DNA of 64,000 bases, from the IMG/VR virus record IMGVR_UViG_3300034196_000067, positions 108,796-172,795 of that record. One strand, written 5' to 3'. The DNA is from a virus. This document shows, piece after piece, positions 40,885-41,895 of this stretch. Each line of letters opens with the position of its first letter. The first letter of the stretch is position 1. The notes under the pieces are model-generated. The model did no database searches, was not told the origin of the DNA, and worked only from the letters and a program-made list of their open reading frames with translations. The position numbers and the translations under genes were made by a program.

Positions 40885-40935
40885 GACATAGTGTCGGTGA
40901 TGAGGGGGGGAGCTGTATACACCAATCAAGGAAAT
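40885..40935 (+). repeat. about 50-nt repeat unit A containing palindrome TCACCGACA-N4-TGTCGGTGA
   Basis: Repeats, with about 80% identity, at 41845-41895. Confidence 0.6.
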
Positions 40936-40940
40936 TACAA

Positions 40941-41834
40941 ATGGTTCAGGTATTTGCAGTCCTAGCCGCTCTTGCTGTGTCTTCGCCTGACATCTGGGGA
41001 GTTCAAGAGATAAACCCCACAACGGCCGGCGGCAGGGAGTGGTTCCTCCCCAACGACCTCACTCAAGCGGGTCCTGAGTGGAGTCCTGAGACTGCGTCAG
41101 GAGGAGTCGTCCAGGATACGATTCCCTATTTCCACACCTGCGGAGACTCTTCCTACGGTGGGATCAGGATGAACGTCGTCTCCCCGACCGGCCTGAACTG
41201 GTGGCGCGATGTCGAGATGACTGGGTACTTTCACCGGCACTCTACCCAGCCCAGTTCCGACAACCAAGTCTCTCACATCGAATTCGTTGCGCGCAGCGAA
41301 CGTCACTCAAGCAAAGACTTCACCCCTTCACAGTACAACAAAGGCGTTCCGGCTCCGCAGGGCACTGTAACGCCGCCAGGGTATCCGTACACAGGACTCT
41401 CCTCCGTGAACGCACACTGCGTGGGCAGTTCGTATCACGCAAACGTCTACGACGGATACGTTCTCTTCGAGAAGGAAGTGACGCATACCGGCGGGTACAG
41501 TGGTCAGCGCGGAAAGGTCTTCGTGCCTGGCTTGTCTCTGGACCAGTGGAACGGGGTCAAGTTCATAGTGCGTAACAGCCCCGACGCCACCCAAGTCCAC
41601 TTGGAGCTTTGGCTCGATGTAGGGTCCACGGGAACATGGACCCGAGTCTCGACCCTAACAGACAAGACTGGGGGTGGGTGGTACGCCACTGCTCTCGATG
41701 GCTGCGATGCGGCCCCATACCTCTACACACGCAACATGCTGATCTCGTGGGCCAGCCCGATGGTTGAGTTCCGGGCGGACGCCATGGGCCTCGATTTCCG
41801 TCGGCTCAGCGTTCGTGAGATCGACGCCAAGTAG
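40941..41834 (+). CDS. secreted protein (signal peptide; beta-rich, possible lyase/hydrolase-like)
   Basis: MVQVFAVLAALAVSSP signal peptide; flanked by the two repeat units. Confidence 0.6.
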   Translation: MVQVFAVLAALAVSSPDIWGVQEINPTTAGGREWFLPNDLTQAGPEWSPETASGGVVQDTIPYFHTCGDSSYGGIRMNVVSPTGLNWWRDVEMTGYFHRHSTQPSSDNQVSHIEFVARSERHSSKDFTPSQYNKGVPAPQGTVTPPGYPYTGLSSVNAHCVGSSYHANVYDGYVLFEKEVTHTGGYSGQRGKVFVPGLSLDQWNGVKFIVRNSPDATQVHLELWLDVGSTGTWTRVSTLTDKTGGGWYATALDGCDAAPYLYTRNMLISWASPMVEFRADAMGLDFRRLSVREIDAK

Positions 41835-41844
41835 TTGTGGCATT

Positions 41845-41895
41845 CACCGACAATGGTGTCGGTGATGAAGCGGGCCGGAAGAGGCGTACACACCT
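41845..41895 (+). repeat. about 50-nt repeat unit B containing palindrome TCACCGACA-N4-TGTCGGTGA
   Basis: Copy of 40885-40935; followed by a GCGGGCCGGAA...TTCCGGCCCGC terminator-like hairpin. Confidence 0.6.

Follow-up and report, generated by a model that had tools for sequence, protein, structure and literature searches.

A short stem-loop repeated on either side of a lectin-like gene in a large phage genome

What does a perfect palindrome signify when it stands at both ends of a single phage gene? The question is raised by a 64,000-nucleotide stretch of viral DNA (IMG/VR record IMGVR_UViG_3300034196_000067, positions 108,796 to 172,795; hereafter "the window", in whose own numbering all positions are given), in which two copies of a short inverted repeat bracket an open reading frame (ORF) at 40941-41834, coding for a 297-aa lectin-like protein. 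A preliminary description, made from the nucleotide letters, had taken each copy for a unit of roughly 50 nt and had proposed either an operator in a repressible cassette or a small mobile or recombination unit. We found that the repeat is genuine and non-random, smaller than first described, and of modest interest. Tentatively, we read it as a single-strand stem-loop that marks where an inserted gene begins and ends, comparable to a promoter-less version of the linkers in the promoter-early stem-loop (PeSL) cassettes of T4-type phages (Arbiol et al. 2010, PMC2839356; PMC4122927).

A 24-25-nt stem-loop in two direct copies

The repeated unit is a perfect 9-bp inverted repeat, TCACCGACA/TGTCGGTGA, followed by TGA, and the true repeat, loop included, amounts to 24-25 nt (Table 1). 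Its two copies are direct, in the same orientation, 964 nt apart, with ORF 40941-41834 between them as previously noted. The preliminary description had placed the copies at 40885 and 41845 with 4-nt spacers in both, whereas they begin at 40880 and 41844 and the spacer of copy 1 is TAG, one T too many having been read there; the duplication of a perfect palindrome stands, with spacers of 3 and 4 nt rather than 4 and 4. Evaluating how specific this arrangement is, a gapped search recovered exactly 2 sites in the window and dinucleotide shuffles with any match numbered 0 of 100, while an enumeration of every perfect hairpin in the window with 8 bp or more of stem left this stem-loop as the sole recurring sequence. 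The 9-mer as such is not enriched (13 matches in the window versus 8.4 expected). Further copies, which the preliminary description had named as a check, did not appear: allowing up to 2 mismatches per arm, nothing convincing was seen in the window and the 8.75 kb past its right end, which together cover 72.7 kb of a ~209-kb phage genome.

Comparison of the copies by MAFFT alignment revealed one indel and one transition, both in the loop, with 21/21 stem and tail positions identical. Under uniform neutral change, we calculate the chance that both changes fall in the loop as (4/25)^2, or p ~0.03, and this placement fits a constraint on the stem with a free loop length, as in a hairpin. Folded as RNA, the hairpins reach -12.7 kcal/mol (copy 1) and -13.3 kcal/mol (copy 2), and each is present in the minimum-free-energy fold of its own region (84 nt in the case of copy 1). 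The unit is also asymmetric, with the TGA tail conserved 3' of both stems and no mirrored TCA on the 5' side. Its 5' edge is exactly the stem foot, and GTAG and GTGG stand 2-3 nt 5' of the two stems.

Outside this module the resemblance between the copies fades. Beyond the hairpin and TGA, the sole common piece in the alignment was GTAYACACC, at 40915 and 41886, which was not significant as part of the repeat. Local alignment of the flanks against shuffles gave p ~0.21 downstream and p ~0.70 upstream, and 23-38% of arbitrary windows of this genome reached the same flank-alignment score, such that the earlier unit of ~50 nt contracts to 24-25 nt. A second pair of sequences around copy 2, TTGTGGCAT/TTGAGGCAT, lay by our estimate within chance expectation.

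The lectin-like gene and its boundaries

We next consider where the copies lie relative to the genes. From 38544 to 40867 the recorded gene calls overlap or sit no more than 3 nt apart, and on the far side ORFs 41926-42336 and 42342-42644 are separated by 5 nt; around the lectin-like ORF lie gaps of 73 nt (before it) and 91 nt (after it), and this tightly packed plus-strand block has no other long gap. Each of the two gaps holds one copy just past a stop codon. Copy 1 begins 12 nt past the TAG stop of ORF 40565-40867, and its stem ends at 40900, 40 nt upstream of the ATG at 40941, with the ribosome-binding site of the lectin gene (AAGGAAA, 7 nt before the ATG) downstream of the copy. Copy 2 begins 9 nt past the TAG stop of the lectin gene itself. 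The stem of copy 1 is followed by TGAGGGGGGG, with no U-tract, and that of copy 2 by TGAAGCGGG.

As the preliminary description had seen, copy 2 runs into a strong terminator-like hairpin with a T-rich tail, and the GA of its TGA tail pairs into the stem of that following terminator. The 100-nt region of the terminator folds at -52.8 kcal/mol (z = -6.8), and its tail resembles the CTTTCT(C/T)TT tails of the phage's other terminators. The kinase-like gene that follows is probably expressed by read-through, since the terminator leaves it no space for a separate promoter, and the gene block ends at convergent terminators (42648-42707). The phage's terminators (for example 18169-18198, 30190-30217, 33290-33315, 41867-41917 and 42675-42707) have unique GC-rich stems and share the CTTTCT(C/T)TT tail; the repeat is therefore not a ubiquitous terminator shape in this genome, which the preliminary description had named as the finding that would refute it.

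Promoters were also evaluated. A consensus scan of 34000-50000, whose consensus may not be that of the host, found no sigma-70-like promoter near either copy, the sole promoter-like site being on the minus strand at ~47.3 kb, and a manual check of -35/-10 spacing around both copies yielded no plausible pair; a sigma-70 promoter in or after the hairpin was rejected on both counts.

Turning to the bracketed gene, the AlphaFold2 model of its 297-aa product (46 sequences) had a mean pLDDT of 91.9 and a pTM of 0.90, and its top Foldseek matches in the PDB were legume lectins, ERGIC-53 and VIP36 (E ~5e-7, TM ~0.4). The model, confident although the TM is only ~0.4, resembles a ConA-like jelly roll. 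Neither Pfam nor PHROG gave a match. Homologues of the protein number 54, itself not counted; most sit on bacterial contigs, one sits on the contig of an unrelated phage, and several are labelled "carbohydrate-binding protein [Archangium]" at source. The closest (58% identity) sits at the end of a tail/lysis module on an unrelated, serine-recombinase-bearing, temperate-looking phage contig, and the remaining inspected homologues are found in bacterial-type surroundings of several kinds. Many of the bacterial homologues have a clear signal or lipoprotein leader, and the phage protein is probably secreted too, judging by its short hydrophobic N-terminus, so that the signal peptide of the preliminary description is plausible. 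Its 309-aa and 100-aa neighbours are orphans, a word-based search among 5.8 billion proteins returning only themselves. This phyletic pattern, 54 homologues elsewhere and two searched neighbours that are orphans, marks the lectin-like gene as putatively acquired and horizontally mobile. No stem-loop was present beside the inspected homologues, from which we take the repeat to belong to this phage's locus.

Assembling these observations, we suggest that the lectin-like gene came in by horizontal transfer and interrupts a block of closely packed, co-directional genes, and that the 24-25-nt module would be a stem-loop at the 3' end of two consecutive genes, thereby marking both insert junctions. 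A loop of variable length, a stem without differences and an asymmetry between the strands together speak for a single-strand stem-loop in which the stem is preserved and the loop is free to change; the location of the copies, at the 3' ends of two consecutive genes and at either edge of the acquired gene, speaks for a cassette-boundary element. The hairpin may form and matter in RNA, where it would serve as an intercistronic 3' hairpin punctuating a polycistron: lacking a U-tract, copy 1 should let transcription continue into the lectin gene, and copy 2 would directly precede a real terminator. It may also have been duplicated at insertion, and may mediate gain or loss of the gene. Recombination between the direct copies would excise the lectin gene precisely, leaving one hairpin plus the terminator, with an expected deletion junction of ...GTAGTC-TCACCGACA-loop-TGTCGGTGATGA-AGCGGGCCGG... 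and an expected circle junction of ...TTGTGGCAT-hairpin-TGAGGGGGGGAGC.... A bolder extension, which we regard as a long shot, is that the stem-loops are recognition ends of an undescribed hairpin-bounded cassette system in jumbo phages, with a phage or host enzyme that recognizes single-stranded hairpins excising and inserting accessory genes such as the secreted lectin; such a system would amount to promoter-less, integron-like or PATE-like shuffling at 3'-untranslated-region (3'-UTR) hairpins.

Weighing the readings

Several observations weigh against a boundary stem-loop that mediates gain and loss. Only two copies are present in the 72.7 kb scanned of a ~209-kb genome, and a linker family is not demonstrated by them. 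The exact identity between the direct copies, 13 nt (GTGTCGGTGATGA), is short for homologous recombination. Both stems are perfectly Watson-Crick, with no G-U pairs and no covariation, and their pairing does not favor RNA over DNA. The lipoprotein-like ORF upstream is an orphan, so the idea of two cassettes falls back on the lectin gene. No relative lacking the lectin gene was found in IMG/VR or in the collection of 5.8 billion proteins. Lastly, the synonymous codon usage and third-position GC content (GC3) of the lectin gene lie within 1 standard deviation of its neighbours (0.113 vs 0.23 +/- 0.12), and any acquisition was therefore not recent. Atypical codon usage as a sign of recent transfer was accordingly set aside, the crude score being low and the leave-one-out synonymous-codon score unremarkable.

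The rival that survives best is a non-functional scar, in which the module was duplicated by illegitimate recombination at insertion, or by local duplication, and too little time has since elapsed. We consider this possible though unlikely. That there are two adjacent direct copies only, that similarity drops sharply outside the module, and that no associated promoter, regulator or recombinase was found all suit a scar. However, a scar sits less well with both changes falling in the 3-4-nt loop and none in the 21 stem and tail positions, or with a 5' edge that coincides exactly with the stem foot, and the ameliorated codon usage suggests an insertion old enough for more decay than is seen.

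Rather less probable is that the copies are the ends of a small non-autonomous element whose lectin cargo is moved in trans by an HUH enzyme of the IS200/IS605 or REP/RAYT type, or by another recombinase, which would recognize the hairpins as single-stranded DNA. Here a horizontally mobile gene with the same hairpin at each end, both on one strand, recalls the hairpin ends of IS200/IS605 elements, the GTAG and GTGG 5' of the stems resemble the GT[AG]G of REPs, and tolerance of a variable loop fits hairpin recognition. Yet the 25 Pfam families listed, of 40 matched across the 82 ORFs of the window, include no recombinase, transposase, integrase or Y1/HUH protein; the 72.7 kb hold no further copies and the hairpin is absent beside homologues elsewhere; and the stems are perfect, unlike known TnpA hairpins. 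The mobile or recombination unit of the preliminary description is thus compatible with a mobile gene set between the only two sizeable gaps, and is unproven given that no recombinase or transposase stands among the listed families.

An operator for a dimeric regulator had been one proposal of the preliminary description; such a pair, acting by repression or by looping across the lectin gene, we now hold to be improbable. A perfect 9-bp inverted repeat does occur twice, ~1 kb apart, and two XRE-type helix-turn-helix (HTH) proteins are encoded in the window, one of them ~14 kb from the repeat. But half-site spacing is not constant (3 vs 4 nt), the TGA tail is not mirrored 5' and there is no two-fold symmetry, both sites lie just past stop codons and overlap no promoter, with no promoter-like site predicted nearby, and no Pfam DNA-binding domain was found in ORFs between 38071 and 46872, ~5 kb either side. 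Nor does a related palindrome, at up to 2 mismatches per arm, occur near the XRE gene or elsewhere in the 72.7 kb. The repressible cassette is weakened along with the operator.

The last rival comes from the occurrence of the same stem in other genomes. Scans for the exact palindrome returned 8 viral matches from IMG/VR and at least 120 matches each from metagenome and GTDB genomes, and the matches listed were almost all single, often intragenic chance sites in unrelated taxa. About 14 of the ~250 exact matches listed formed one ~130-nt structured repeat family in Cellvibrio genomes and soil metagenomes. In order, its members show an outer stem (variable, 20-25 bp), GAGACCW, the same 9 bp of stem around an NGGA loop, TGAGC, a further small hairpin whose loop reads AGGGAC, and GTCTC. 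The family is multi-copy, its outer stem covaries, both of its hairpins have GGA loops, and it is sometimes arranged as inverted pairs flanking a small ORF. It scored 34.3 bits against the Rfam family TwoAYGGAY (RF01731), whose gathering score is 43 (E = 0.0015), a weak match to an RNA proposed to bind or sequester CsrA (PMC4333381). The same arms recur in a Spirochaetaceae metagenome-assembled genome (OZ245363.1), in a tandem array of 180-nt units that each carry TCACCGACA-TCG-TGTCGGTGA inside a longer stem; as this array is unrelated, the arms appear to recur by chance in repeat families, and the stem identity with the Cellvibrio family is possibly coincidental.

Could the phage module, then, be a decayed remnant of the first hairpin in a TwoAYGGAY-like RNA, a candidate for CsrA binding, that was taken up from a host, for instance Cellvibrio? 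We view this as highly improbable. In its support, the Cellvibrio and soil family does carry the identical 9-bp stem and then TGA(G), and the AUGG loop of copy 2 is a rotated version of the family's UGGA. Against it, the phage loops (UAG and AUGG) lack the defining GGA, and both the second hairpin and the outer stem are missing. At 40800-42000, Rfam matched neither TwoAYGGAY nor any other family even at E <= 10, and when a covariance model was derived from the Cellvibrio repeats, the hairpin was the only part of it to align in the window (model positions 17-40, 18.3 bits). The arms' presence in the spirochaete array and at >200 scattered single sites makes coincidence plausible.

Other site types were rejected outright. 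Both stems lack the U-tract of an intrinsic terminator, the terminator scan returned neither copy, and neither resembles the phage's own terminators with their CTTTCT(C/T)TT tails. Sites of lox/dif type and of serine recombinases do not fit in arm and spacer geometry, the spacers being unequal. Hammerhead-like and K-turn or C-D-box-like readings of GUGAUGA are missing core positions and GAAA, and a SECIS- or PYLIS-like recoding hairpin after the TAG stop would require read-through frames that are inconsistent between the copies.

Returning to the boundary stem-loop, the gains of the analysis are a repeat corrected to 24-25 nt, the removal of the operator reading, and a cargo identified as a ConA-like lectin putatively acquired from bacteria. 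A duplication scar or a simple 3'-UTR hairpin, if that is all the repeat proves to be, would be an ordinary finding.

Genomic setting and known systems

The window, part of a tRNA-rich phage genome of ~209 kb, corresponds to JGI metagenome contig Ga0370509_0000001 (209,442 bp) and had no DNA match in INPHARED; the only other assembly, a Logan contig (SRR10968273), agreed with it at 100% identity across 10.5 kb. Using the lectin gene, the kinase and a 228-aa ORF as queries, no syntenic relative was found in IMG/VR, and ORF-by-ORF BLASTP of kinase-bearing loci revealed no synteny. We read the source as a jumbo phage with no close relative in the collections searched. Among the features of the wider window (Table 1), the tRNA set is near-complete for a phage, with three tRNA-Met-like genes and several isoacceptors. 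ORFs of the window include RtcB, RlaP, a vault-protein-like ORF, an acyl carrier protein, a GH108 endolysin and an Acb2/Tad1-hairpin ORF. A scattered RNA-repair-like set can be recognized among them, and the major-vault-protein-like ORF directly upstream of RtcB is unusual in a phage. Four occurrences of GTCATAAG exceed an expectation of 0.78 (1/100 shuffles reaches four) and may represent a phage promoter element.

Table 1. Coordinates, strand and character of the features discussed, in window numbering.
Feature	Position	Strand	Details
Stem-loop copy 1	40880-40903	+	TCACCGACA-TAG-TGTCGGTGA-TGA; 3-nt loop
Stem-loop copy 2	41844-41868	+	TCACCGACA-ATGG-TGTCGGTGA-TGA; 4-nt loop
Bracketed gene, 297 aa	40941-41834	+	ConA/legume-lectin-like beta-sandwich (predicted); short hydrophobic N-terminus
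Upstream 100-aa ORF	40565-40867	+	Lipoprotein-type leader MKMLFAVLVAMMVSAC, lipobox read from sequence; 3' end carries copy 1
Common flank motif GTATACACC	40915-40923	+	Counterpart GTACACACC at 41886-41894; no statistical support as part of the repeat
Terminator-like hairpin	41867-41917	+	15-bp stem, ~21-nt loop region, unusually large; then TTTCTTGA
AAA_33/polynucleotide-kinase-like P-loop protein	41926-42336	+	Downstream gene; Pfam PF13671, E = 2.5e-13; phrog_505, E = 1.6e-14
XRE-type HTH protein	55901-56104		One of two in the window
tRNA genes (42)	790-18143	+	All on this strand, among small ORFs
tmRNA	37132-37510	+	Full-length; Rfam RF00023, 114 bits, E = 1e-44; unreported by ARAGORN; between acyl-carrier-protein gene and ORF 37547-38014
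RNA-repair-like set	~4659-5471, ~17204-17674, 30668-33223, 33339-34520, 41926-42336		RlaP, cREC_REC domain ORF, vault-like ORF, RtcB, polynucleotide-kinase-like AAA_33 protein
Major-vault-protein-like ORF			851 aa; MVP_shoulder, Vault_3
Acb2/Tad1-hairpin ORF	50051-50296	-	81 aa; PF24729; candidate anti-CBASS/anti-Thoeris nucleotide sponge
GTCATAAG	8747, 30610, 61464, 62812	+	All intergenic, upstream of + genes
Adjacent 228-aa ORFs	45204-45890, 45894-46580	-	Exactly 228 aa each; no family matches; possible tandem paralogues
Periplasmic-binding-protein-like ORF	~63477 onward	+	Peripla_BP_4/1/3; runs across the right end of the window

Placing the repeat among known systems, one comparison is with integron attC sites, which have RYYYAAC ... 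GTTRRRY core sites, span 55-140 nt and depend on the intI integrase. This possibility was rejected, as GTCGGTG is unlike GTTRRRY, the module measures 21-22 nt and the listed families include no integrase. The TwoAYGGAY and Cellvibrio repeats share the identical 9-bp stem and the 3' UGA, and differ in having AYGGAY loops, a second hairpin and an enclosing stem, which the phage copies lack. Lambdoid nut/put sites likewise present two similar transcribed stem-loops per genome, one immediately upstream of a terminator. Those sites lie behind the early promoters of two separate operons, with boxB of nut recognized via its loop, whereas here both copies lie in one operon and the loops differ while the stems are conserved.

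IS200/IS605 elements carry left-end and right-end hairpins on the same strand, and REPs carry GT[AG]G near their stems, the known TnpA hairpins being imperfect. The phage locus resembles these in having a same-strand hairpin at both ends of a segment and in a loop length that appears uncritical, and departs from them in its perfect stems, its two copies, its lectin cargo in place of tnpA/tnpB and the absence of an HUH protein among the listed families. Morons, a concept of Hendrix and Juhala for lambdoid and other phages, classically have no bounding repeat and usually have their own promoter; the lectin-like gene is similar to them as a single accessory gene of foreign phyletic affinity in a tight block, followed by its own terminator, and differs in its bounding repeat, its composition that is not atypical and the lack of a promoter found here.

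The closest likeness remains with the PeSL cassettes, whose repeats flank non-essential ORFs and recombine to delete, insert or circularise them (PMC2839356). PeSLs differ in carrying a strong sigma-70-like early promoter with an AT-rich UP region, of which none was detectable in the promoter scan here, in having many copies across hyperplastic regions as opposed to two in ~73 kb, and in a stem of GGGG...CCCC type that the phage stem does not follow, with the shared identity here confined to 24-25 nt. What the two have in common is short, repeated, intergenic stem-loop modules placed around ORFs that are non-essential or acquired, in the large genome of a lytic-type phage, here a lectin-like gene with bacterial and foreign-phage homologues, and direct copies whose recombination could delete, insert or circularise the intervening gene. 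The PeSL idea holds that short, repeated regulatory hairpins direct the shuffling of accessory genes into safe intergenic sites. Should the copies indeed act as linkers when genes come and go, that idea would reach a high-GC jumbo phage unrelated to the T4 type, and the copies would provide a concrete deletion junction.

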